Of a stretch of DNA of 64,000 nt, positions 3,300-62,440 are shown one piece after another; the first letter of the stretch is position 1; the number at the start of each line of letters is the position of its first letter. This DNA is from Eledone cirrhosa. Taxonomy: Eukaryota. The DNA lies in assembly GCA_964016885.1 (NCBI GenBank), contig OZ024740.1, positions 231,260,001 through 231,324,000 on the forward strand, in the 5' to 3' direction. The notes below the pieces were generated by a model that saw only the letters and a program-made list of their open reading frames with translations, ran no database searches and had not been told where the DNA came from. A program made the translations under genes and the position numbers.

Positions 3300-4275
3300 T
3301 AGTCTAAAACGACTTGGAGTGGTTGATCAGTTTGTCTATCTGGGAAGCAATCTTGATAATGAAATTCTACTCAGGATTAGGAAAGCAATTGATGCTTTCA
3401 GAAAGCTAGAAAGGCGCCTCTGGGGGTCAGCGAGACATATGCAAGAAGAAAAAGGTAAAGGTATACAAGGCATGTGTGCTCTCTTCTCTTCTTTATGCCT
3501 ACGACACTTATGTCACATATTGACACCACCTTAAGCAGTTTGAACGTTTCCATTAGATGTCTCAGATGGATTCATGGCATTCAGTGATGTTGAGATTTTG
3601 GAAAGCTCTCTGTGTGACAGTATAGAAGCTCTTGTGCTTAAGCAAAGAGTTCAAGGGAGTGGTCACCTTGCTAGAATGAAGGATTCGAGAATACCGAAAC
3701 AACTCTTTTATGGAGAGTTAGTTAAAGGAAAAACGACCTCCACATAAACCAAAAAAGAGGTATAAGGATTTGTTGAAAGCTTCCTTGAAATACGCTAACA
3801 TCTCTGCTGATACATGGGAAAGTGTAGCTGCTGATCGTAATAAATGGAGAAGGACTGTACATGAAGAGAAAGTTGCTTTTGAAGCATCTCAAATCGCATA
3901 CGAGAAAGTAAAAAGGGATATGAGGAAAGGCATTGCTTTTGCATTTCCAGACAGTGAAGGTCCTCCTACACGCTGACATGCAGTGTCTGTGTGAGACTCT
4001 GCCTCAGCAATGCTGGACTTGAAAGTCATCTTCGCAGTCATAAAGTAAGACCAGTGGTTGACTACCAGGCTGCTGTTGGCGATGCTGCTCATCATATCTG
4101 TCAAGCACGTGGAACAGAATGTAGATCAGCAGGAGGGCTCAACAGCATGTAAAAGTACATGAACTCCAACCACAGCCGGCTATTCCCAGTGAATGTTTTG
4201 GTTGCCAACTACGTCCAAGACATTTTAGTTCATTGGCTGGGCTAAAAAGCCACATTCGATGGCAGCACCGTTAGT
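3300..4275 (+). mobile_element. 5'-truncated, degraded RTE (BovB-like) LINE with C-terminal C2H2 zinc fingers
   Basis: VVDQFVYLGS..LDNEILLRIRKAIDAFRKLERRLW; PKKRYKDLLKASLK..WESVAADRNKWRRTV; CSVCVRLCLSNAGLESHLRSH followed by two more finger-like units. Confidence 0.85.
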
Positions 4276-4321
4276 TGTTAATATATATGTATATATATAT
4301 GTGTTTATATATATATATATA

Positions 4322-6887: not shown

Positions 6888-6930
6888 ATTTCGTGCAATG
6901 GCCATACTCGATAACGAGAGGGCAGCCATT
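6888..6930 (+). mobile_element. RTE 3'-terminal stem-loop remnant
   Basis: tcgtgcaatggccataCTCGataaCGAGagggcagccat, nearly identical to 16586-16628. Confidence 0.7.
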
Positions 6931-7174: not shown

Positions 7175-7700
7175 CAACCCCACCAAGGTTTCTCGGTGAG
7201 GAGGGTGACTTTGGACATCCTGCAGGACTAAAAACAAAACCTGTCAAAGGGCAAAGGAGCTCTTAAGAGTCAATGGCCATCCAAAATCACCAGGAGAGAT
7301 GACCCCTTAGCCTTTGTCAAGGCAGAATTCTAGGAGAAGGAAAACTCTGATATAACACCTGCAACCCTGATGGTTTCCAATGATGTTGACTTGTTCTTCT
7401 TTTTGGTAAATATCATCTTGGTTAAGAGAGTGGGACTGGCTTTGTGCAGTGCCTTTGCTCACTATAAAAGCTTCACAGCACAGGCATTGCTTTATATCTG
7501 GAGATCTCTCTGCACTTGTCGTCACATGGTACCATGGGCCCAGCACTATGTGTCAATAATTGTCACAAGTGTAGTGTTTGTACCAGAGTTTTCAAGTCGC
7601 TGGCTGGACTAAAAAGTCACACTTATTCAGCGCATCGGTAGGGGTTCTCCTACATGGATATAAAGTAGTGGCCGTACTCGAAAACGAGTTGGCAGCCACC
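7175..7700 (+). mobile_element. Non-autonomous RTE-derived retroposon (family H), 5'-truncated copy
   Basis: Near-identical to 8166-8668 and the 30.1-31.2 kb copies. Ends with C2H2 coding remnant [17 protein letters not shown] and hairpin CTCGaaaaCGAG-ttggcagccacc. Confidence 0.85.
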
Positions 7701-7711
7701 ATATATATATG

Positions 7712-7797
<86 letters not shown>

Positions 7798-8078
7798 TGT
7801 ATGTATATATATATGTATGTATATATATATGTATGTATATATATATGTATGTATATATATATGTATGTATATATGTATGTATGTATATATGTATGTATAT
7901 ATGTATGTATATATATATGTATGTATATATATATGTATGTATATATATATGTATGTATATATATATGTATGTATATATATATGTATGTATATATATATGT
8001 GTATGTATATATATATGTATATGTATGTGTATATATATATGTATATATATATATATATGTATGTATATATATATGTAT

Positions 8079-8165
8079 ATTATGTCAGGTCACCAGTTGG
8101 TGCCACTGGTAACATGTATCCCAGTACAACCTGTCTCATAGTCGGGTCGTTGGCGACTAAACTGG
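8079..8165 (+). ncRNA. HDV-like ribozyme (candidate)
   Basis: P1 attatg/catagt; J1/2 hairpin gtcaccagt/actggtaac; P2 ccagt/actgg; CC pairing with the GG after P1' (P1.1); P4 tcg-ttgg-cga; then C-TAA. P3 is imperfect and G1 is missing. Confidence 0.55.
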
Positions 8166-8668
8166 CAACTCCACCAAGGTTTCTTGGTGAGGAGGGTGAC
8201 TTTGGACATCCTGCAGGACTAAAAACAAAACCTGTCAAAGGGCAAAGGAACTCTTAAGAGTCAATGGCCATCCAAAATCACCGGGAGAGATGACCCCTTA
8301 GCCTTTGTCAAGGCAGAATTCTAGGAGAAGGAAAACTCTGATATAACACCTGCAACCCTGATGGTATCCAATGATGTTGACTTGTTCTTCTTTTTGGTAA
8401 ATATCATCTTGGTTAAGAGAGTGGGACTGGCTTTGTGCAGTGCCTTTGCTCACTATAAAAGCTTCACGGCACAGGCATTGCTTTGTATCTGGAGATCTCT
8501 CTGCACTTGTTGTCACATGGTACCATGGGCCCAGCACTATGTGTCAATAATTGTCACAAGTGTAGTGTTTGTACCAGAGTTTTCAAGTCGCTGGCTGGAC
8601 TAAAAAGTCACACTCGTGCAGCGTATCGGTAGGGGTTCTCCTACATGGATATAAAGTAGTGGCCACCA
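8079..8668 (+). mobile_element. Family H retroposon, longest copy, with HDV-like ribozyme fold at its 5' end
   Basis: Extends ~90 nt further 5' than the 7175 copy. The terminal hairpin is deleted between gcc microhomologies. Confidence 0.85.
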
Positions 8669-8669
8669 T

Positions 8670-15004: not shown

Positions 15005-16157
15005 AAGTGTGAAACATTTTCTTCATTCATATGTAGCCTGAAAATGATTAAATATATTGAAATAATCAATGTTTGATCAACAGTGTGCTCTTGACTTCAA
15101 ATTAAGTTACACCACTGTATGTATTTATATGTATGCTTGTGTATGTGTTTATATGTATGTATATTTATGTGTATTTATATGTATGCCTGTTTATGTGTTT
15201 GTATGTATTTATATGTATGTTTGTGTATGTTATGTAAGAGGAAGGATGGATGGCCATAGCATTATCCATGGATGCCGGTATATTGGTGATTAGGAAGCTT
15301 ACTTTGTAACCAGGAGGTTTCAGATTCAATTCCACTGCATGACATACTGGGTATATGACTTTTCTCATAACCTCAGGTTGACACAAGCCAAATACCAGGG
15401 TTTGACAGACCGCTTCCTTTTCACGTCTCACCAGACCACTTCCTTTCACATGTCACCTGACTGCTTCTTTTTAACATAACACCAGACCACTTCCTTTTCA
15501 CATAACACAGGTTGCTGTTGAAATTTCAAGTGTCCTAGGTCCCTGAACTGCCATTTTCTTTCGCAAAACCAGAAAAATGGCTTCTTGCTTAAGGAAAGAG
15601 CCCCATGAGGTGGAGTGGCTCTGGCCATTCTCCATGGCAAAGCCTTTGCCATTTTGTCTGCAGGACGCAGCTGAAAGATACCGCTCAGATTGGGTTGTTG
15701 AGTCTGTCACTCCCACCCTCTCTTCCCTTCCTTTCATTGTATAATTTCTTCTTTCATTTTCTTCTTTTCTTTCCATTCTATTATTCCTTATTGCTTGATA
15801 TCAATATTTTTACCCTGCTCCCAAGCCTTGCGAGTGAAATTTGGTAGACAGAAACTGTTTGGAAGCCTATCTGATGCATCTTGCTTGTAATTCAAAGGGC
15901 CAACTTTGTCATACATTGTATCATGCTAATTCTGATAACTACAATAAAGGTACAAGAGTCTGTAGAATACTCAGCCACTTATCCTATCATTCAGTCAGTA
16001 AGCAATTCAGGTAATCAAACAACTGAGATAACCATCTTCAAAACCAACAGAAATGTTTTTACTATTTTGTTTGTTTGCATGCATGCATGCATGCATGTAT
16101 GTATGTATGTATGTATGTATGTATGTATGTATGTATGTATGTATGTATGTATGTATG

Positions 16158-16315
16158 TCAGCAGGAGGGCTCAAGCGACATGCAAAAGTACACAAACTCC
16201 AACCACAGCCGACTATTCCCAGTGAATGTTTTGGTTGCCGACTCTGTGCAAGACATTTTAGATCATTGGCTGGGCTAAAAAGCCACATTCGATCGCAGTG
16301 CTGTTAGTTGCTATC

Positions 16316-16347
<32 letters not shown>

Positions 16348-16630
16348 GCTTATGTGTGTGCATGTGTGTGTGTGTATATATATATGTATATGTATATTAT
16401 TATTATTGTTGTCGTTATTATTATTGTTATTATTATTATTATTATTATTGTTATTAATGTATGTGTGTGTGTATATGTGTGTGAGTGTGTGTGTGTGTAT
16501 ATGTGTATGTATATGTATATATATATATTTTTTTTTATTTTTTTATTTTTATTTATTTATTATTATTATTATTATTTTTTTTTCTTCTCGTGCAATGGCC
16601 ATACTCGATAACGAGGGGGCAGCCATCATC
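16158..16630 (+). mobile_element. 3' end of the zinc-finger RTE family with internal microsatellite and terminal stem-loop
   Basis: 16158-16310 matches 4125-4275 (SAGGLKRHAKVH...[20 protein letters not shown]). Followed by (TG)n/(TTA)n and ggccataCTCGataaCGAGggggcagccatc. Confidence 0.8.
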
Positions 16631-30076: not shown

Positions 30077-30156
30077 CATACATACATATACATACATATA
30101 TACATATATATGTATGTAAAAGGTAAACAGAAATAACAACGTATACATACATATAT

Positions 30157-30613
30157 GGTGGCTGCCAACTCGTTTTCGAGTACGGCCACTACTTTATATC
30201 CATGTAGGAGAACCCCTACCGATGCGTTGAACAAGTGTGACTTTTTAGTCCAGCCAGCGACTTGAAAACTCTGGTACAAACACTACACTTGTGACAATTA
30301 TTGACACATAGTGCTGGGCCAATGGTACCATATGACGACAAGTGCAGAGAGATCTCCAGATATAAAGCAATGCCTGTGCCGTGAAGCTTTTATAGTCAGC
30401 AAAGGCACTGCACAAAGCCAGTCCCACTCTCTTAACCAAGATGATATTTACCAAAAAGAAGAACAAGTCAACATCATTTGATACCATCAGGGTTGCAGGT
30501 GTTATATCAGAGTTTTCCTTCTCCTAGAATTCTGCCTTGACAAAGGCTAAGGGGTCATCTCTCCCGGTGATTTTGGATGACCATTGACTCTTAAGAGCTC
30601 CTTTTCCCTTTGA
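30157..30613 (-). mobile_element. Family H retroposon, 5'-truncated copy
   Basis: Reverse complement of ~7245-7700; same spurious ORF set (MVSNDVDLFFF...). Confidence 0.9.
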
Positions 30614-30643
30614 TATATATACATACATATAATATATATACAT

Positions 30644-31196
30644 GGTGGCTGTCAACTCGTTTTCGAGTACGGCCACTACTTTATATCCATGTAGGAGAAC
30701 CCCTACCGATGCGCTGAACGAGTATGACTTTTTAGTCCAACCAGCAACTTGAAAACTCTGGTACAAACACTACACCTGTGACAATTATTGACAGATAGTG
30801 CTGGCCCAGTACAACCTGTCTCATGGTCGGGTCGTTGGCGACTAAACTGGCAACCCCACCAAGGTTTCTTGGTGAGGAGGGTGACTTTGGACATCCTGCA
30901 GGACTAAAAACAAAACCTGTCAAAGGGCAAAGGAGCTCTTAAGAGTCAATGGCCATCCAAAATCACCAGGAGAGATGACCCCTTAGCCTTTGTCAAGGCA
31001 GAATTCTAGGAGAAGGAAAACTCTGATATAACACCTGCAACTCTGATGGTATCCAATGATGTTGACTTGTTCTTCTTTTTGGTAAATATCATCTTGGTTA
31101 AGAGAGTGGGACTGGCTTTGTGCAGTGCCTTTGCTCGCTATAAAAGCTTCACGGCACAGGCATTGCTTTATATCTGGAGATCTCGCTGCACTTGTC
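30644..31196 (-). mobile_element. Family H retroposon with inverted 5' segment
   Basis: 30644-30808 is the 3' part on -; 30806-31196 is the 5' part on +. Confidence 0.9.
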
Positions 31197-31567
31197 ATCA
31201 CATACATATATACATACATGCATACACACACATATATATATATATATATAGTAATAATAATAAATTTGAAGATCCCGTTAAGGGTGAAAGCAGCGATTCT
31301 TTGTTTAAACTTTAATCTGTTATTCTAATAAATATATATATATACACATACATATAAATATATGTAAATATATATATACATACATATAAATATATGTAAA
31401 TATATATATATATATATACATACATATAAATTTATGTAAATATATATATATATCTATATATACATATAAATATATGTAAATATATATATATACATACATA
31501 TAAATATATATAAATATATATACATACATATAAATACTTATAAATATATATACAAATATATATATAT

Positions 31568-42579: not shown

Positions 42580-45500
42580 TAAAGAATCTCCCTGTACCTC
42601 TTGCTGAAAAGACTGAAAAGACTGCGGAATCTGCTACCCATGAAGTGATTGCCATTGGGGTACCAGAGGACAAGCTGATCTTCAGGCATTTGCTGCCAGC
42701 TCAGCCAAAGACCTAGGCTGTGTTCCCCCAAAGGGTGCTCTCCGCCTTGGTCGACCTGGTCCAAAACCCAGACTCATCAGGCTGTCTTTTTCGGACCCCC
42801 GCAGAGGCAACCTCATATCATCTGGCCTCTGCTAAAGCTGGGCGTGAAAATCGGATTACCTTCCGAACACGCCCAGGCCTACCACCCCATGTACGTCCAA
42901 AGCTACGTGCTGCAGCTTCCTTGAATCGGAACTCAGCACAAGATGAAAGTTTTAGTCTGCGTGATGATGGGCAGATCTGGAGGTTTGTCAAGGCTGGTGA
43001 AACGTGGAAGAGAGACACCAGCTGGTCTGAGTGTGATCTACCCACAATAACTGGCAATGTAAAAACTGCTACAACTCTGGGAAACTAAACCAGAACAACC
43101 TGCCACCCTCTACACACCATCATAAACTGCGAGCAGGGTACAAATTGTTGTCCTTAAATACTCGCAGTTTATGCAACAAGATACATCTGTTCAAATCCTA
43201 CGTCAGAAGCATCGACCCTGACTTCATCACAGTCACGGAAACATGGGCACATTCCTTACTCTGTGATGGGGTTTTCAGCATTACTGGGTACAACCTTTTC
43301 CGCAAGGACCGCATTAACCGCCGTGGTGGTGGTGTGATGGTCTACGTTCGTTCAAACTTTTCGGTAATTCCTTGCGTTGATTTGAACGAATCACAGGAAG
43401 AAATTTTTTTCTGTGACATACGTATGACCATGTCAACACTTCTGCTTGGTGTTGTTTATCGCCCCCCAAACTACCATCAGGACACACAGCTTTGCGATAT
43501 CCTCAGAGTTGCTGCCAAGAAAACAGCCACTTATGTGTTTATTGCAGGTGACTTCAATCATCCTGAGATCGATTGGGAAACCTTTCGTTGGCCACAAGGT
43601 GCAAACGATTTCCTTGAACTAGTGCTGGACTCAAACTGGTCACAAGTAGTCACCTCTCCAACAAGAGGTGACAACACTTTGGACCTGATCTTCACCACTA
43701 CTCCTGAAGTGGTTATCAGTTGTACTACTGAGGAACCTCTAGGCGACTCTGATCATGCTATGATCATTGCCAATCTGGCACTTGAGGGCAGCAACAAAAA
43801 CCAGAGCCATCTCCAATCTGCTTGCTTTGATTGGAAGAGGGCGGATTGGAACTTGTACTGCACTGAGCTACAGCGCCCAAACTGGCATGAGATGTATAAC
43901 TCTGGAGATGTGAACTCTATACTCCAGAGCATCCTGGACTCAATATGGATAGCATGTGCAGCATCAGTGCCACGGAAGCGGAAAAATAACCACCCCAAAA
44001 GTGCAATCTGGGAAACTTCAGCGGTCCGACTTGCCAGGAAAGAACGTCGGAACGCTGAACGGGAATATAAACTGCATAGATCAGATGCCAACAGAAAAAA
44101 GCGGAATAAATCTTCTAACCATCTCAAGCAAGTGACAAAGAAGGCAGTGCTTGAATTTGAACAGTGCATTGCAACCAATCCTGACAGTAAGGTGTTCTGG
44201 AAATATGTTCATTCAAAGCAGAGACCTCACTCTCCAGTTGGTCCTCTTCGCAATCCCCACACAAGTGAGATCACTGTCGATCCCAAGGAATGCGCAGAAC
44301 TCATTGCTGAGTGCTATGCAAGTATTTTTACTGTTGAAAACCAGAATGTACCATCTCCACCATCTCTAACATCAAATTCCATAACAACTATGGAATTTAC
44401 ACCTGCAATGTTGCGACGTCACCTTAAGAATAAGCGCAACTATGCCTCCCCTGGTCTTGATGGTGTGACATACCTGCTTCTCAAACGTGGCGGGTATTTC
44501 CTTTTGCGCCAGCTTTCTTTCTTCTTTCAATACTGTCTCAACAATGGTGCTACTCCGGAGCAGTGGAAAACTGCCAGTGTCATTCCCCTGTTCAAAAAGG
44601 GCAACCGCATGTCACCTGTCAACTATCGTCCAATCAGTCTTACTAGCTGTATGGCCAAACTGATGGAATCCTGTGTCAGAGAAACACTTTGGAACTTCTG
44701 GAGCTCTCACAGCCTCATCCGGCCCTCACAGTTTGGATTTATCCCTAACTCCAGCTGCTGTGATCAGCTTATCGAGTTCCTTGAGGACATCACCCGGATC
44801 ACTGACAGCGGCTCATGGGTGGATGTTGTTTACCTTGACTTTGCTAAGGCTTTTAATTCTCTGCAATGGGTGTGAGGGATGATCTTTTCGACTGGTTGAA
44901 ATCCTTCATTCTCAGCCGAAAAGAAGTAGTCACGGTTTTAGGACAGCATTCTTCACCATATGAGATGTCATCTGGTGTACCACAAGGATCTGTTCTTGGT
45001 CCTCTTTTGTTTGTGGCATATATTAATGACATAGATGCCAACTTACAGAATGCCACGGTACTAAAATATGCAGATGACATCAAGCTGTACTTTGAAATCA
45101 AAAGGACTGATCCTGAAATTTACAACTCTTTCCTACAATCAGACCTGGACACAATGCAGCAATGGATCACAGACTGGCAACTGAAGCTGGCTGTGGACAA
45201 GTGTACCACCATGCATTTCGGAAGGAAAAATCCAGCGTCCACATACTCCCTCCACAACACTGATATCAAAAAGTCCTCTTGTGAACGTGACCTGGGCATT
45301 ACTGTCAGCAACGATTTGCGTTGGACAAAGCATGTCTCTAAGATTGTCAAGAAGGCCGAGGGTGTCTTGGCATCACTCAGCAAGACCTTTGTTAGCCGCT
45401 CTCCAGCCATCTATTTAAAACTGTATACAGCTATGGTACGACCACACTTGGAATTCGCATCATCAGTCTGGAACCCCTATCTTGCTCAGAACATTGACCT

Positions 45501-46168
45501 CCTGGAAACTGTTCAGAGACGTGCAACCAAGCGCATACCCTCCATCAGACACCTACCATACTCTGAACGCCTTGCTTCCTTGGGCATGGATTCATTGAAG
45601 CTCCGACATCTGGCAATGGACTTGGTGAATACCCACAAAGTTTTTAACCATCTCGCCAATTGCAACCCTGAGCGCCTCTTTGATCTCCATGTGTCTAACA
45701 CACGTGGACATGCCTACAAGATCAGAAAACAGCACAGATCCCATGACTTTCATAGACATTTTTTCACTATCAGAGTTGCTGAAGCATGGAACAAACTGCC
45801 TGCGTCAATTGTTAGCTGCTGAGACACTGCATCCTTTAAGACACTCATGCTTCCCGAAATACGCCAAAACTACACCTGATGTACCCCTTCCATACACATG
45901 CACACGTGTGTATCATGACTCGTGCACTGTTCATTTTACTGATGTTTGTGCATTGCCCTATGTACTGTACATGCACTTTTTTGATGAGTTGTGGTGCACC
46001 TGGGCGCTGTGCACGATACTTCATTATTGTTGTTATTATTATATCATGACTCATACACTGTTCATTTTCCTGACATTTGTACATTATTCTATGTACTATA
46101 CATGCACCTTTGAATAGTTGTAGTGCACCTGAGCACTGTACACAATAATTTCATTATTATTATTATTA
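42580..46168 (+). mobile_element. CR1-type LINE: partial ORF1, complete-length ORF2 broken by one deletion/frameshift, 3'UTR and (ATT)n tail
   Basis: ORFs 42720..43088, 43145..44875 and 44866..45822; terminal gtgcacctgagcactgtacac + (att)n. The 5' boundary is approximate. Confidence 0.95.
43145..45822 (+). pseudogene. LINE ORF2 (APE endonuclease + reverse transcriptase), frameshifted at ~44860
   Basis: TETW, GDFN, PTRGDNTLDL, SDH; NYRPISLTS, QFGF, YLDFAKAF | GVPQGSVLGPLLF, YADD. The VxHxKLLxKL segment expected after FAKAFNS is missing. Confidence 0.95.
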
Positions 46169-47997: not shown

Positions 47998-50400
47998 ATC
48001 ATCATCATCATCATCATTTTACGTCCGCTTTTCCCTGCTTGCAAGGGTGGGACGGGTCTTATTCGGCACAGCATCTCTCCACTCGTCACGGTCCTTCGTC
48101 ATCTCCAGCGTGAGCTTCAATGATCTGAGGTCTGTTCTCACCACCTCCGCCCATGTTTTTTGTGGTCTACCTCTACCACGTCTTCCTTCAACTGGCATTT
48201 CCTGGCACTTCTTCACCCATCAGTCATCCTCCATGCGCATCGCATGTCCATACCACCTCAGTCTCCTCTCCCGTACACTACATTCTATCCCTCTCAGACA
48301 CAGTTTCTCTCTCAACACATTTATGCTGGGTCGTTCATGCACATTTACACTGCACATCCAACGGAGCATGCTTGCCTCATTTCTCTCCAGCCGTCGCATA
48401 TCCTCTGCAGTTGCTGCCCATGTCTCACTACCATGCAGCATTGCGCTCCTCACACAGGCATCATACAACCGGCCTTTCGTACGCAGGGAGAAACCCTTCT
48501 TCATCAACAGAGGAAGCAGCTCCCTAAACTTCTTCCAACCCGTCCTTATTCTAGATACTATGGCCTCGGAACAGCCTCCTCCTATGCTAATCTGATCTTC
48601 TAGGTACCGGAAGCTATCCACCACTTCTATAGCGCCCTCCTGCATTTGAAAAATGTGTCTATCAATGCGACTTCTACTGTCTAATTTCCCTGTATATCTA
48701 CTGCATACATATTTCTCCCTACCTGTTAGTTTGCCTGCTATCCTGCTACATCTCTTGTGTACCCAGGATCTGCATTGTGTGCATTTTATAGAATTTATGC
48801 CAGTTCCTTTTCTGCATATCGAACATGGCCATTTCCCTGACGGAATCAGGGTTTTGTCCTCTTTTCTACTCATCAACACTTTTGTCTTAGCTAGGTTCAC
48901 TCTCAGTCCTCTTGCTTCCAACTACTGTTTCCATAGCCAGAATTTATTCTCTAGCTCCTCTACTGATTCTGCTATAAGAACCAGATCGTCAGCATAGAGA
49001 AGTTCCCATGGACAGCCAGTCTTAAACTCCTCTGTTATGGCTTGGAGGACTATAATGAACAAGAGCGGGCTGAGGACCGAACCCTGATGTACTCCTACTT
49101 GTATCTGGAATTCCTCACTAAACTCCATTCCTACCCTGACTTTACTGAGAGTACCTCTGTACAATGTTTGCACTGTCCTCACAAGTCATTCCTCAACACC
49201 TAGCTTCCTTAGGGACCACCAGATGACAGATCGGGGTACCCTATCAAAGGCCTTCTCTAGGTCAACAAAGGCTAAGTATAGTTGCTTATTTTTCTCTAAG
49301 AACCTCTCTTGCAATTGTCTCACCAAGAAGAGGGCATCTGTTGTACTCTTCCCAGGCACAAAACCAAACTGCATCTCATCTAGTTTGACCCTTTCTCTAA
49401 TTAGTTGTGCTAATATCCTTTCTGCCACTTTCATAACCTGATCTATCAGTTTTATACCCCTATAATTGCTCCTCTCCAGATCATCCCCTTTACCTTTGTA
49501 GCAATTTATGAGAATACTGCTGCACCAGTCTTTGGGTATGACACCACCATATATAGCCTGATTGATGATGTGTGCAACCAGTTTAGTGCCTACGTCCCCT
49601 GATGCCTTCAGCATCTCAGCAACTATTCCCGATAGTCCAGCAGCCTTACCATTTTTCATTTCCCTAATCGCCTCTTGGACCCTATATTCGTCAATCTCAA
49701 TAGCTGGTCCCTCTGTCGGATCTACTAAGGGTAATTTCTCTCTCTCTCCCATTCATTCTCCACATTCATCAGTCTCTCATAATGACATTTCCAGGCCTCC
49801 TTTTTCTGGTCATTTGTGACACTAAGTACACCGGCATCATCCCGGACACATTTATCTCCAACAACATCCTGATTTGCATTGACACACTGCCTTGCAATGT
49901 GGAACACCGCACGCCTCTGATCTTCCCGTCGCAGAACATTGGCAAACCTCCTACTCTCAGCCTCCCTGCGTGCTAAGTACACCTGACGTCTAGCTTCTCT
50001 CTTAGTGGCTGTATATTCTTCCCTACTCCCACCCTTTTTCCAAGCCTTCCATGCTAGTCTTTTGTCTCTAATGGCCTTATCTACTGTGCTGTTCCACCAC
50101 CAGGTCACTCTCTGTCTGGTTGGAGCTCTGCTCCAGCCACAAGTTTCATCAGTAGCCTGCAGCAAGTTGTCACGTAAGAAATTCCAGTTATTATCTATGT
50201 CATACGTCTCTAAATCGTCTTCTTTTTCGTCATATACATCTTGAAGGGCTTTCCTAAATTTGTATTTTAGTGAAAGGTCTTTTAGCTTCTCCACACCTTC
50301 CTATATGTCTCATTCCATCTCTTGCTTACTGAGATATCACTAACAACTAACCTATGCTGTGGGGTACATTCTTCCCCAGGGTATGCCTTGGTATTAGACA
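47998..50400 (-). mobile_element. RTE LINE 1 (5'-truncated, few lesions) with PHD-like finger in the RT C-terminal region
   Basis: Collinear ORFs 49725..50294, 49186..49752, 48922..49182, 48220..48921 and 48019..48216: NYRGIKL, QFGFVPG, FVDLEKAFDRV, GVHQGSVLSP, YADD, GRPQKTW; (ATG)n tail. Confidence 0.95.
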
Positions 50401-50427
50401 CTATCTGCCTATGTATGTGTATATATA

Positions 50428-50502
<75 letters not shown>

Positions 50503-50510
50503 ATATATAT

Positions 50511-50930
50511 GTAAACCTACAGTCAGTAGGTACCTCTTAACCAAATATACACCCCAATCCACTACCCCTACCCTATCCTGCCACTCCCACCAACACCACC
50601 CTCTCTCTGTAACGTTGGTACCACAACATCCAGTCCAAATAAATGAGATAATGAGATTGAGATCGTGTAGGTGTCACAACAAAAAAAAAAAAACAAAAAA
50701 AAAACAGTCCACGCTGTAATGTGGCCGTGTAGGTAACACGGTAAAAATCTCCCAGTCCATACTGTAAATCTGGTTGGTGTTAGGAAGGCATCCAGCCGTA
50801 GAAAACCTGCCAGATAGTCCTATATGAGCGAGACATGGTCACCTGACCAACCTTGCCTCAAGTGGGACAACTCCCGTCTAACCCATGCTAGCGTGGAAGA
50901 TGGACGTTAAACGAAGATGATGATGATGAT
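50511..50930 (+). mobile_element. Solo 3'UTR of RTE family 2
   Basis: Diverged reverse complement of 50941-51326. Confidence 0.85.
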
Positions 50931-50940
50931 TATTATATGT

Positions 50941-51985
50941 ATCATCATCATCATCATCATCAACGTTTAACGTCCGTGTTCCACGCTTGCATGGGTTTGG
51001 ACGGGGGTATTCCCACTTGAGGCAAGAGTGATTGTCTTGCTCGCATAGGACTGTCTGGCAGGTTTTCTACAGTTGGATGCCCTTCCTAACACCAACCACA
51101 TTTACAGTGTGGGTCTGGGAGGTTTTTACCGTGTTGCCTACACGGCCACATTACAGCATGGACTGTGTGTTTTTTTGTCGTGACACCTACACGATCTCAT
51201 TTGTTTCGGCCTGGATGGCGCGGCACCAACATAACTTTACATAGAACGGGGTGGTGTGGATGGGGTGGGGGTGGTGGGACGGGGTGTATTTTGTTAGAGA
51301 TGCCTACTGGCTGTAGTAGGTTTTACTATGTATTTAGGTAAGGCGGGTCTTCTCTGTTACTGAGTACCGCCAAAGGTCTCGGTCCAGTGACATTGTCTTG
51401 GAGAGGTGTAAGTGTGTGAGTTCGGAGTTTATCAGCTCGTCCCAGGTTTTTCTAGGTCTGCCTATTCCGTGGCTACCATCTATCTTTATTGCCCTGCACT
51501 TTGTTATACAGCTATCGACTTTCATGCGCATCACGTGTCCATACCAACGTAGCCTTCTCTCGAGTAAACAACATCTGATCCCTCTTATTTCTAATTTTTT
51601 CCTTAGTTCGTTTATGTTTTGCCGTTCACGTATATTACTGTTACACATCCAGCAGAGCATGCAAGCTTCATTCCTCTCTAGTCTGCGTATATCCTCTGCA
51701 CACAATGCCCAGGTCTCACTGCCATCCAACATTGCTGTTCGTATGCAAGCATCATACAACCTGCCTTTCATTTTTAGGGAGAACCCTTTAGCAGCTAATA
51801 GTGGTATAAGCTCTCTGAACTTTTTCCAACCAGTTCTGACTCTAGCTACTGTACTTTCAGAGCACCCTCCCCCACTGCTGATTTTATCGCCCAGGTAACG
51901 GAAGCTGTCCACTATTTCTATAGAACCCTCTGCGCAATTGAAAGAGCTAGTATTTTGTGGGCACTTGCTGCTACTTATTGCACCA
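50941..51985 (-). mobile_element. RTE LINE 2 3' portion with ~390-bp 3'UTR
   Basis: ORF 51334..51912 DSFRYLGD...GRLYDACIR..GSETW...RLRWYGHV...GRPRKTW; (ATG)n tail. Confidence 0.95.
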
Positions 51986-52020
51986 ATATGTATATATGTA
52001 TATGTATGTGTATATATATA

Positions 52021-52210
52021 TAATAATAATGAAATTATTGTGTAAAGTGCTCAGGTGCACTACAACTCGTCAAAGGTCAGGGAAGTGAATAGTGTATGAG
52101 TCATGGTATACATGTGTGTATGTGTATGGAGGGGGAACATTAGGTGTAGTGTTGGCGAATCTCGGGAAGCATGGAGGTTTTAAAGGATGCAGTGTCTCAA
52201 CAGCTAACAC
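52021..52210 (-). mobile_element. 3' end of the same CR1 family as 42.6-46.2 kb
   Basis: Reverse of gttagctg.tgagacactgcatccttta...gtagtgcacctgagcact + (att)n. Confidence 0.85.
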
Positions 52211-52218
52211 ACATATAT

Positions 52219-52554
52219 ATTTTCATTTCATTTTACGTCCGCTTTTTCCCTGCTTGCAAGGGTGAGACGGGAACTGATTCTGGCTTGATTTCTACAGCTG
52301 GATGCCCTTCCTAACACCAACCTCATTTACAGTGAGTGCTGGGTGCTTTTTTGCCGTGGCACCTCCACGACCACTTTGCAGTGGAATGATAGGGACCCCA
52401 GTCCCTATCATCTCATTTCTACAGCTGAGTAAACTGGAGCAATGTGAAATAAAGTGTCTTGCTCAAGGAAACAACACATCACCCGGTCTGAGAATTGAAC
52501 TCACAACCTTTCGATTGCAAGGCCAATGCTCTAACCACTAAGCCATGTGCCTCC
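52219..52554 (-). mobile_element. SINE family A, copy 4
   Basis: Full-length match to the other copies. Confidence 0.9.
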
Positions 52555-54069
52555 ATAATATACATTATACATGTATATACATTAGAAATCAAAATTAAAA
52601 AAATAAAACACACACACATCATGATTGATTTTCAGCTCTGCTTCTGAGTATATCAATGATTTTTAGATTTCAGATTTATCCATTAATTCAATAAGTCAGG
52701 TATTTTGATATTTTGATGTGCATACAAAATACACTGTTATTTGTTGTTACTTTTCCCCTGTTTTTCTTTTCATCATTTATAATCTGTTTCTCTTAATATT
52801 GTCCTTAACATAGATATGAACTCTATTTATAGTTCTATTTTTATTGGCTCTCGTATTTTTTGGCAGCCTATTCAATTTATATAAATATAAGACAAGTCAA
52901 ATTATTTCTGTATTGATGCATGACTGTGTTAATAATCATGCTTCCATTAATTTACTCTGACTCGTTAAATATTTTTAGTCATTAGACTTTGGCCAGCCTG
53001 GGGTACCACAGTAACTTTTTTTGGTATTAAACTGCCCCAATCTGTCTCTAGTTTTATAAAACAAACCCTACATAGATGTGCGCTGTAGCAGTAACAGGTG
53101 TTATGAGGCAATTTTCGTTGCTAAGTAAAAGTTAACCTTGTAAACTCAATGACAGACTTAATTATACCAGCTTGTGGCCCTTTTTGAAGCAACGTTTTAC
53201 AGCCAGATGCAGGGATATGGTGTACCTATTCTAACCTGGATAAACACAGTAAGTTATTGGAAAGGTGTATTGCAGATAATTTTCTGGAAGAAGGGGTTGG
53301 GTGTTAATCCCCAGAATGAATAAGTTTCTGATCCAAAATGTGGAGTGTTTTCTTGGTAAGACCATTAGAATACTTGAGAAGCTTCCTATAAGGTGAAGCC
53401 TCGTAGGAGGCCAGCTAAACCTACATAGGTGTGAGCTGTAACATATAAAACAATATGTGTTAACACCTGTAATTTCTCCTCGAGATATACTTTAAGTGAA
53501 GTGGAATGATTGGAAAAGAAATTGAATGACTAGGAATAGCACAGATCAAAAACATATCTCACCTACCATTAGTTTATTCATTTTCCTTGCCAATGATAAA
53601 TATACTTCCTTTGTTGATGCCTAACCCCATGTCAACTTGATTAAGTAAATCTATGATCAAAAACATTCTAGTCATAACTATACTGCTTTTCATCCAATGT
53701 ATCCATTTTTGTTTAACCCTTTTTAGTCTGATGGGACACTTTTATAAGAACTATGTAAGAGCATTAAACTTATTTAATTGAACAAAATATAGCATTTTCT
53801 AAGTAGAAATATTAACCCACTGTATCAAGGCTCTTTCTGATGATGTCATTTAGATTGAATTGGCATTGATATAATGACTTTTGAGAATGTATTTCCTACT
53901 AGGTTATTTGTCACAAGCAGGCGGGTGCTACCATTAAGCCAACTTGCGAGCCACCTAGGGTGCCCTTCTCAGATGCATTCAGATCTGTATAATTAACTTA
54001 TATATATAATCATTTGCTTCAATCAATAAATAAACCAGTCCTGAGAGGTGCAATTGTGCAAGGTCATTT

Positions 54070-55745
54070 TTTATCACCTCATCTTTCTGAGTCTTCCCAC
54101 TCTATGGCTTCCATCAACTTGAGTGCTCTGCATCTTTTTTATACAGCTGTCATTCTTCATACGCATCACATGCCCATATCAATGCAATCTCCTCTCTTGC
54201 ACACTACATCTAATTCCTCTTATGCTAGTTTCTCTCACAGTTCATTTATGCTTTGTTTTATATTACTATTACACATCCATCGAAGCATGCAAGCTTCATT
54301 TCTTTCAATTCTTCATAAGTCCTCTGCAGACAGTGCCCAGGCCTCACTACCATGCAACATTGCTACTTATATAAATGCATCGTACAGTCTGCCTTCCATT
54401 TTGAGGGAAAAGCCTTTTGTAACTAGCAGTGGTTGTAGCTCTCTGAACTTCTTCCATCCTGTCCTAACCCTGGCTACTGTTCTTTCAGAACACCCACCTT
54501 CACTGTTAATTTGGTCTCTTTGGTAGCAGACGCTGTCTACTGTTTCTACTGAGCCTTCCTAGAATTTGATAGTGCTTGTTTCCTGTGGTCATATGCTACT
54601 TACTGTTCCTGTGCAATGGCTACATGTAAAACCTACGTTCTTAGCTAAACTACCTGAGATCCCACTACATCTCTTGTCTACCCATAGTTTGCATTTGGGA
54701 CAGTGGATGGAATTTCTACCTACACATTGAGCAAGGCCATTTCCACGAGGGTCTCATGGATCTTTTTTCCCTTCTACTTATTAGGACCTTAGTCTTTGTC
54801 AGGTTGACTTTAAGACCCTTTCTTTCTAAGCTGTGCTTCCAGGTTCGGAATTTCTTCTCTAATTCTGCCATAGAGATCATCTGCATACAGAAGTTCCCAT
54901 GGGCAGGCAGTCTTAAACTCCTCTATTATAGCCTGCAGAATGATAATAAACAGGAGAGGGCTAAGAACAGATCCCTGGTGGATGCCAACCTGCATGTTAA
55001 ATTCCTTGCTATAGTTGTTGTTAATCCTAACTTTGCTGACTGTTCCCCTATACATGGCAAGTACAGCCTTCACAAGTCACTCTTCTACTCCTAGTTTTCT
55101 AGGAGCCCACCAGATAATGGCATGGAGTACTCTGTCAAATGCTTTCTTAAGATCAACAAACACCAGGTAGAGTGGCTTACTTTTAGCTAGGTACTTCTGT
55201 AGCTGTTTCAGAAGGAAAAGAGCATCCATGGTGCTTTTACCTGGCACAAATCCAAACAGCATTTCATCTAGGTTAACACGGTCCCTAATCAGTTGTGCAA
55301 TAATTCTTTCTGTTACATTCATGACCTTGTCCATCAACTTGAAGCTTCTCTAGTTTCCTCTATCTAGTGCATCTCCTTTACCCTTGTGCCAGTCATTCGA
55401 TATGGCACCATTTAGTATTATTTGTTTTACAATAAGAGTGTTTAAGGTGTGACCCACCAATCCAGATGCTTTCATCATCTTGGTAACTATCTCTGATGGA
55501 CTGGCTGCTTTCCCAGTCTTCATGTCCTTAATTGCCATACTTACTACATTGCTGCTGACTTGTATGGCTGGGCCCTCTGTTGGGTCCACTTGGGATAAGC
55601 TCTCTTTCTCCCATGCATTCTTCTCATTCAGTAATCTTTCATAACGGCTCTTCATGCTACTTTCTTTTCTGCGTCTGTGACAGCAAGTGCACCTTTATTA
55701 CCAATGACATCACAATTTTATCTAACACACTGCCTCGCAATATAT
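54070..55745 (-). mobile_element. RTE LINE 3, degraded, PHD-containing family related to LINE 1
   Basis: ORFs 55350..55655, 55077..55337 and 54810..55073 (YADD); GKWPCSMC..IHCPKCKLWVDKRCSGI..FTCSHCTG at ~54610-54745. Confidence 0.9.
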
Positions 55746-62153: not shown

Positions 62154-62440
62154 CAAATGGAACAAAACCGTCTAACCCATGCTGGCGTGGAAGATGGACG
62201 TTAAACGATGATGATGATGATCATCATCATCGTTTAACGTCTATCTTCCATGCTAGCATGGGTTAGACGGGTTTGTCCCATTTAGAATCAAGTTGGGTTG
62301 GGTGACTGTTTCTGGCTGGTTTTCTATGGCTGGATGCTCATCCTAGTGCTAACCACATTTACAATGTGTGCTGGGTGCTATTTGCCATGTCTTTTACACA
62401 ACCACTTTACAGTGTGGGCTGGGTGCTTTTTGTCATGATA
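62154..62440. mobile_element. Tail-to-tail pair of RTE/SINE 3' ends
   Basis: Palindromic around gatgatgatgatcatcatcatc. Confidence 0.85.

Follow-up and report, generated by a model that had tools for sequence, protein, structure and literature searches.

A bipartite RTE derivative with a conserved, non-canonical 5′ head in Eledone cirrhosa

The element and its copies in the window

The window (the whole 64,000-nucleotide stretch analyzed here, from a 3.0-Gb assembly) is 35.6% GC and rich in TA/TATG microsatellites. It contains a full-length copy of a bipartite, non-autonomous RTE element (family A), related copies, and pieces of sister RTEs, as follows (nt, position in the element):

8084..8669, plus strand: full-length bipartite non-autonomous RTE copy (family A), 586 nt here
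8084..8510, plus: 5′ part, equivalent to nt 1 to 427 of the parent LINE 5′ untranslated region (UTR), 95.8% identical to parent copy L083
8084..8218, plus: conserved head block, nt 1 to 135; identity among families A to D is 79 to 96%, versus 66 to 80% for the rest of the 5′ part
8084..8090, plus: first seven bases, G1 being 8084; predicted 5′ strand of terminal helix P1
8091..8102, plus: 4-bp hairpin, nt 8 to 19; sole helix in nt 1 to 95 with a family-level compensatory change
8104..8126, plus: contested region; a 6-bp hairpin in a rival fold, the P2 5′ strand plus P3/L3 in a redrawn HDV-like fold
8129..8135, plus: predicted P1 3′ strand; 6 of 7 pairs, with U-U at position 2
8144..8165, plus: GG, short hairpin, C8157-UAA, and candidate P2 3′ strand
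8512..8669, plus: 3′ part, the end of the parent ORF and its 3′ UTR; tail hairpin deleted in this copy
8561..8611, plus: last zinc finger (CSVC...SH), a remnant within the 3′ part
7175..7702, plus: 5′-truncated copy starting at nt 83; tail hairpin intact at 7677-7688
30155..30613, minus: 5′-truncated copy starting at nt 152
30642..31203: one insertion with its 5′ part inverted; 30642-30807 on the minus strand, nt 37 to ∼435 at 30805-31203 on the plus strand
16137..16625, plus: 3′ fragment of a young sister RTE with a B-type tail; not the parent of the element
6888..6930, plus: isolated B-type tail
3307..4280, plus: 3′ fragment of the sister RTE

Four related pieces in TA/TATG microsatellites had been recognized in a preliminary description of this DNA, and BLAST confirmed them: the other three are 94 to 98% identical to the copy at 8079. 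The piece at 30644 is indeed a related copy, but it belongs to a single insertion, 30642-31203, whose 5′ part is inverted. The element start had been placed at 8079; the sequence common to genomic copies begins instead at G8084. An intact family A unit is 610 nt, and the window copy is shorter owing to a 24-nt deletion that removed its 3′ CTCG-n4-CGAG hairpin, a loss already noticed, as was the zinc finger encoded by the family's 3′ end (CSVC...SH). The tails at 6888 and 16586, with which this hairpin had been compared, are zinc finger RTE tails, but of the sister B type, and the one at 16586 ends a sister RTE fragment rather than a copy of the parent.

The element itself is real. As first described, it has no true ORF (its longest ATG-initiated frame is 80 amino acids [aa]) and lacks pol III boxes: the first ∼185 nt of the window copy contain no exact A box and no B box with ≤1 mismatch. 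The same search found no exact A box in any of eight heads, and no B box in seven of the eight. Identity as a tRNA-, 7SL-, or 5S-derived SINE was rejected, since Rfam and A/B-box searches revealed no small-RNA-derived head; the head is LINE derived. A non-microsatellite duplicated word flanks only 3 of 30 copies, and 25 of the 30 have microsatellite 5′ flanks, which hide target-site duplications.

The parent LINE and sister families

The parent of the element is a 4.07-kb single-ORF LINE with C-terminal zinc fingers, present at full length in the same genome. Our search started from a longer 3′ fragment in locus L014, and 40 LINE copies were scored. Six of 27 fetched upstream stretches match element nt 1 to 426 and then, as much as 3.5 kb further on, everything from nt 428 onward (counted from 8085); five of these copies are 4,015 to 4,072 nt long and one is 3,401 nt. 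Thus, the non-autonomous, bipartite parasite of a zinc finger RTE that had been proposed does have an autonomous partner, six long copies of which carry both its 5′ and its 3′ parts, and its 5′ ends pile up at one base (see below). Parent copy L083 has a single reading frame, interrupted by two stops, that begins ∼480 nt in. The parent ORF yields Pfam matches to APE, RT, and C-terminal C2H2 fingers; the LINE has no ORF1, one ORF with APE endonuclease and RT, a 3′ UTR of ∼70 nt, and a short-repeat tail. The best homologues of its protein are mostly ∼1,050 to 1,200 aa and lie on ∼4-kb contigs. Because these homologues are nearly all unnamed, we class the parent as RTE type from its architecture rather than from a tree. 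By description only, it resembles RTE-2_OV of Octopus vulgaris, a single-ORF RTE with a C2H2 finger and ∼600-nt UTRs, although the 3′ UTR of RTE-2_OV is far longer (available portions of PMC9115989).

The 5′ part of the element matches the 5′ end of this LINE, and the 3′ part matches the 3′ end and tail of the same LINE. A 23-mer spanning the junction has 15,649 exact matches in the genome, whereas a 22-mer spanning the uncut LINE boundary has 18 (both counts are exact-match lower bounds); reversed controls gave 0. Among 168 junction contexts, the 12 commonest forms were the same junction, near variants of it, or uncut LINE, and 30 copies picked by their junction averaged 96.7% identity to one natural copy. 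A single internal deletion has produced a 610-nt unit that keeps the LINE 5′ end and 3′ recognition region and far outnumbers the LINE; almost certainly, the element is an internally deleted derivative in which nt 1 to 427 are joined to the last ∼180 nt of an RTE LINE.

Three further short families (B, C, and D) have the head and homologous UTR in common with A, but their middles and tails differ. All three, as well as a parent LINE found for family C (with a full or nearly full head in 14 of 25 loci), start at the same G as A. A 25-nt head word occurs 14,330 times in the genome. The tail hairpin is CTCG/CGAG in A and B versus CTCT/AGAG in C, a compensatory change of the kind expected of a 3′ recognition stem-loop. 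We searched for the head elsewhere: three gap patterns recovered no homologous head outside families A to D, nor was one found outside A to D in viral contigs or in 22 loci of metagenome RTE relatives (13 screened by Rfam, five by the head model).

The young sister RTE, whose 3′ fragment lies in the window, encodes a protein 59.5% identical to that of the parent; many of its copies have open frames of ∼1,200 codons and it keeps a B-type UTR. None of 20 loci has an attached A-D head. Instead, several copies have in common a low-complexity, host-like extension at the 5′ end. Of six extended loci, two begin at an identical point, and the letters there also mark the end of a third copy, which is inverted. 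This family appears to have swapped the A-D head for host-like sequence with its own shared start, and since many of its frames are open, the head is not required by every active family. The extension (L163-L182 and L430-L435) is roughly 1.5 kb, and its start includes a splice-donor-like word.

The type of element is ordinary, and the suggestion that it was possibly uncharacterized does not hold for its kind, which is already described (in the text available from PMC5786205, PMC3414825, and PMC3383444). Bipartite derivatives occur in the RTE, Ingi, Vingi, and R2 clades and usually keep the LINE 5′ end (PMC5786205, in part). Like the mammalian RTESINE1/2, MAR4_MD, WALLSI3, and Bov-A, as far as the same source describes them, the element consists of RTE LINE ends only, has no ORF and no small-RNA head, and retains the extreme LINE 5′ end; unlike them, it is one of four sister families with one head, its 3′ part keeps a zinc finger remnant, and its junction outnumbers the parent boundary by about 870 to 1. 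Ribozyme-headed LINE derivatives are represented by R2 SIDEs and NARTc (from the accessible parts of PMC3414825 and PMC3383444). R2 SIDEs likewise arise by an internal deletion that joins a 5′-end-defining head to the LINE 3′ end, but they belong to the R2 clade, are rDNA specific and rare, and carry a recognized HDV-like ribozyme, whereas the element described here is an RTE derivative dispersed in microsatellites in >15,000 copies, with a non-canonical, putatively 5′-end-defining head (PMC3414825, in part). In NARTc/L1Tc, too, the 5′ end of a non-autonomous LINE derivative is defined by its first ∼80 nt; Pr77 was shown to be both promoter and HDV-like ribozyme in trypanosomes (PMC3383444, in part), whereas the present head is a candidate for either role. 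Literature titles and abstract openings included no paper on this element family or on a cephalopod RTE ribozyme, although Repbase or Dfam may hold the family; the searched supplements of two octopus repeat papers (one of them PMC9115989) and of PMC5786205 gave no motif match.

The fixed 5′ end and the fold of the head

Among the 30 junction-picked copies, 16 start at G1 (8084), 7 at nt 202 to 206, and 7 elsewhere; similarly, of 27 parent LINE copies chosen by their ORF start, 15 begin at nt 1 or 2. The expected pile-up of 5′ ends at G1 of P1 thus exists, but at 8084 and not at the P1 start first drawn. Of 135 full-length heads, 99 have TAT and 22 have TGT as the three letters 5′ of G1, i.e., target microsatellite. 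Identity between families is 79 to 94% over nt 1 to 86 and 81 to 96% over nt 87 to 135, compared to 66 to 80% for the rest of the 5′ part, and primary sequence is nearly invariant across nt 19 to 95. The head, whose conservation exceeds that of the remaining 5′ part, is under some constraint. The second 5′-end cluster (window about 8285-8289) is ragged; a reverse transcription stall, microhomology, or a truncated subfamily are possible sources. Several copies (L026, L400, and L405) have fold-back or inverted 5′ junctions inside the head.

The preliminary description proposed that the head folds as an HDV-like ribozyme, with P1 at 8079-84/8137-42, P2 at 8121-25/8161-65, and C8157 as catalytic base. 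We reject the HDV fold in that form, and it is very improbable that it is an active ribozyme. P2 is fully paired in family A and C8157-UAA is conserved, but with an element start at G8084, all but one of the six letters in the P1 5′ strand belong to variable flanking microsatellite; the middle position of P2 is unpaired in 24 of 36 distinct aligned heads, and the helix breaks in sister families; and no 3-bp P3 with a 7- to 8-nt loop was found. Rfam found no ribozyme in 8050-8300 at E ≤ 10, and for the whole window no ribozyme appears among the 150 of 337 matches listed, which are mostly microsatellite-driven miRNA models.

With HDV features taken from PMC4908430 and PMC3774820 (as far as each source was available), a canonical HDV descriptor anchored at G1 fitted no A-D head tested, yet fitted two of three heads of family R, a different RTE family. 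A wider envelope, using R2 ranges from the accessible part of PMC3774820 and starts from −30 to +30, gave no fit within A-D heads and one D match ∼300 nt downstream; a P1 supplied by the flank, as in some R2s, was dropped for lack of any fit over that same range. Three departures from HDV geometry stand out. A P2 of ≥5 bp is not stacked straight on a 3-bp P3, since 4 to 5 extra nt lie between them; where L3 should have 7 to 8 nt and an in-register CC, the loop is 6 nt long in B, C, and the C parent, an 8-nt reading fitting family A only; and the GG of P1.1 is 4 or 8 nt from P1 rather than within 0 to 2 nt, the range of J1/4 in R2 ribozymes (PMC3774820, in part).

A redrawn HDV-like fold accommodates these departures. 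It comprises P1 at nt 1-7/46-52 (8084-90/8129-35), a J1/2 hairpin at 8-19, P2 at 23-27/78-82, P3 around a CCC loop at 36-41, GG at 57-58 or 61-62, P4 at 64-66/71-73, and C74 (8157). C74, A76, and A77 are the majority bases in all five groups counted, which makes C8157 a candidate catalytic base. Element start, predicted helix from G1, J1/2 hairpin, GG, short P4, and C-N-A-A occur in the same order as in RTE, R2, and Baggins HDV-like ribozymes; the extra J2/3 bases, the extra bases before GG, the 6-nt L3, and a 5-bp P2 with wobbles set the head apart from them, as does the failure of the canonical descriptor and Rfam (compared with the available parts of PMC6765202, PMC3774820, and PMC4908430). 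A descriptor relaxed accordingly (linkers longer by 4 to 5 nt from P2 to P3 and by 4 or 8 nt ahead of GG, and a 6-nt L3) and anchored at G1 fits the A, B, and C heads and the C parent with extra linkers, but not D. None of 20,000 shuffles of three heads passed it, a result that carries no P value because the descriptor was relaxed after the sequence had been seen.

A rival three-way-junction fold keeps P1 and hairpin 8-19 but pairs 21-26/38-43, 30-33/54-57, and 58-62/79-83; it is not HDV in topology. Its nested part is 11 to 14 kcal/mol lower than the redrawn HDV-like fold, with pseudoknot P2 left out of the count, and the RNAalifold consensus prefers its 5′ half. Head folding z-scores, at −0.1 to −1.5, are weak. 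With so little variation in the core, covariation decides neither fold: in 49 distinct heads, the sole family-level compensatory change is in hairpin 8-19, and P1, P2, P3, and P1.1 have none. The covariation anticipated for P1, P2, and P4 was accordingly absent, these helices showing one-sided wobble changes only. L410, which has a 5′ duplication, was excluded from alignment A3. P1 from G1 pairs at six of seven positions in A to C, and an A-U to G-U change in family B keeps the helix; in family D the partner base of G1 is deleted, and D does not fit the relaxed fold. Twelve of 49 rows, most of them from one C-parent subfamily, lack the outer P3 pair. Beyond this core, element nt 130 to 200 contain, by eye, further UTR hairpins that are seemingly compensatory between families.

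Family R has a textbook HDV fold at the element start: 7-bp P1 and P2, 3-bp P3, 7-nt L3, GG, and a long P4. Six of its copies (L205-L210, around position 1501, e.g., G000:C2:209966867) were the only matches in a genome search with RF01787, at 30 to 37 bits, below the cutoff of 37; RF01788 had no matches in the genome. The family has few copies, its 26-nt head word occurring 7 times.

Both HDV-like and twister heads are known on RTEs (PMC6765202, PMC7761336, and PMC8501958, in the portions available), twister variants being located at RTE 5′ ends (PMC8501958 and PMC7761336, likewise). That our head is a truncated twister is nevertheless highly unlikely. It does have a GAGGG word at nt 109 to 113 and a CCC loop at nt 36 to 42, but a loose descriptor with the layout given in the accessible part of PMC8501958 found no P2 register common to all families, the conserved AA-P2-GC arrangement is absent among the fits listed, and twister products begin with A, not with G1. 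Hammerhead, hairpin, hatchet, pistol, and twister-sister ribozymes were dropped after by-eye comparison with their layouts; for the hairpin ribozyme, G1-U-C equals its cleavage word, yet a loop A partner was not seen. Some older SINE-like repeats (L287, L302, L307, L308, and L311) contain a hairpin and C-TAAA word like that at head nt 63 to 78; the head model matched none of the four tested.

What sets the 5′ end

We put about even weight on a combined explanation: a deleted RTE derivative that is copied in trans and whose 5′ end is set by self-cleavage at a non-canonical head. Mobilization in trans by the parent LINE is its stronger component and very probable. Read-through transcription would yield the element RNA, and the structured head would cleave itself immediately 5′ of G1, fixing the RNA 5′ end. 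LINE protein would then bind the 3′ stem-loop and (ATGT)n tail and copy the RNA in trans, with target-primed reverse transcription presumably primed in TA/TATG microsatellites; RTE tail repeats have been proposed to be linked to target choice (PMC6007223, in part). Truncations and inversions would be the usual by-products of reverse transcription.

Self-cleavage just before G1, which includes the case of a dual role like that of Pr77, is predicted with slightly less than even confidence. It would explain why about half of the sampled copies start at one base, and it is favored by the predicted helix that starts at G1 and by the greater conservation of the head than of the remaining UTR. Ribozyme processing through a fold different from that first drawn, and non-canonical, is plausible. 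More specifically, nt 1 to ∼85 or 135 may make up a self-cleaving ribozyme beyond the known range, either HDV with inserted linkers or a new three-way-junction pseudoknot, a proposal that we regard as rather speculative; the corollary, that a single animal genome would contain at least 14,330 near-intact copies of such a ribozyme cutting before G1, is equally tentative.

The fixed 5′ end and nearly invariant nt 19 to 95 fit an internal RNA polymerase II promoter starting at G1 as well as they fit a ribozyme, the helices then being incidental or serving translation or packaging. Pol II is believed to transcribe bipartite LINEs (PMC5786205, in part), the first 77 nt of L1Tc/NARTc act as both promoter and ribozyme (PMC3383444, in part), and the apparent replacement of the head in the young sister by host-like sequence with its own shared start points the same way. 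Against a promoter, a predicted helix begins exactly at G1 and is followed by a GG...C-U-A-A module in HDV order, family R has a canonical HDV fold at the same position, and only a weak initiator-like word is visible. We consider the promoter a substantial minority possibility; the element, first described as promoterless, may have one. The three-way junction is favored by the RNAalifold consensus and by energies, and it tolerates every family-level change except the family D deletion, as would suit a decayed ribozyme or a purely structural head whose 5′ end is set by a host nuclease or a template jump; a decayed motif, however, would not be expected to keep 79 to 94% identity over nt 1 to 86 next to UTR at 66 to 80%, and no host nuclease is indicated. 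We therefore think this origin improbable.

Self-cleavage and promoter readings differ in consequence. Should the head cleave, the known range of HDV-like or 5′-processing ribozymes widens, and a highly abundant form escapes descriptors and Rfam; should it act as a promoter, this genome contains at least 14,000 copies of a compact internal one. The element offers an inexpensive way to test how the 5′ ends of RTE elements are defined, in a genome that contains three solutions: a canonical HDV-like head (family R), a conserved non-canonical head (families A to D and two parent LINEs), and host-like replacement sequence (the young sister RTE).

Copies of the element also occur in a tandem array of ∼5-kb units, each with element copies, at G000:C1:136441505-136484350 (L003-L008). 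Elsewhere in the window, positions 43037-45819 (plus strand) contain two long frames, of 612 and 321 aa, of another APE-RT LINE, which we take to be CR1/L2-like, and fragments of a distant RT-encoding family lie at 48067-55544 (minus strand). A near-perfect 118-nt inverted repeat around a GAT/CAT run at 62160-62278, which has a sub-threshold miRNA-model match, is probably a fold-back of two element ends.
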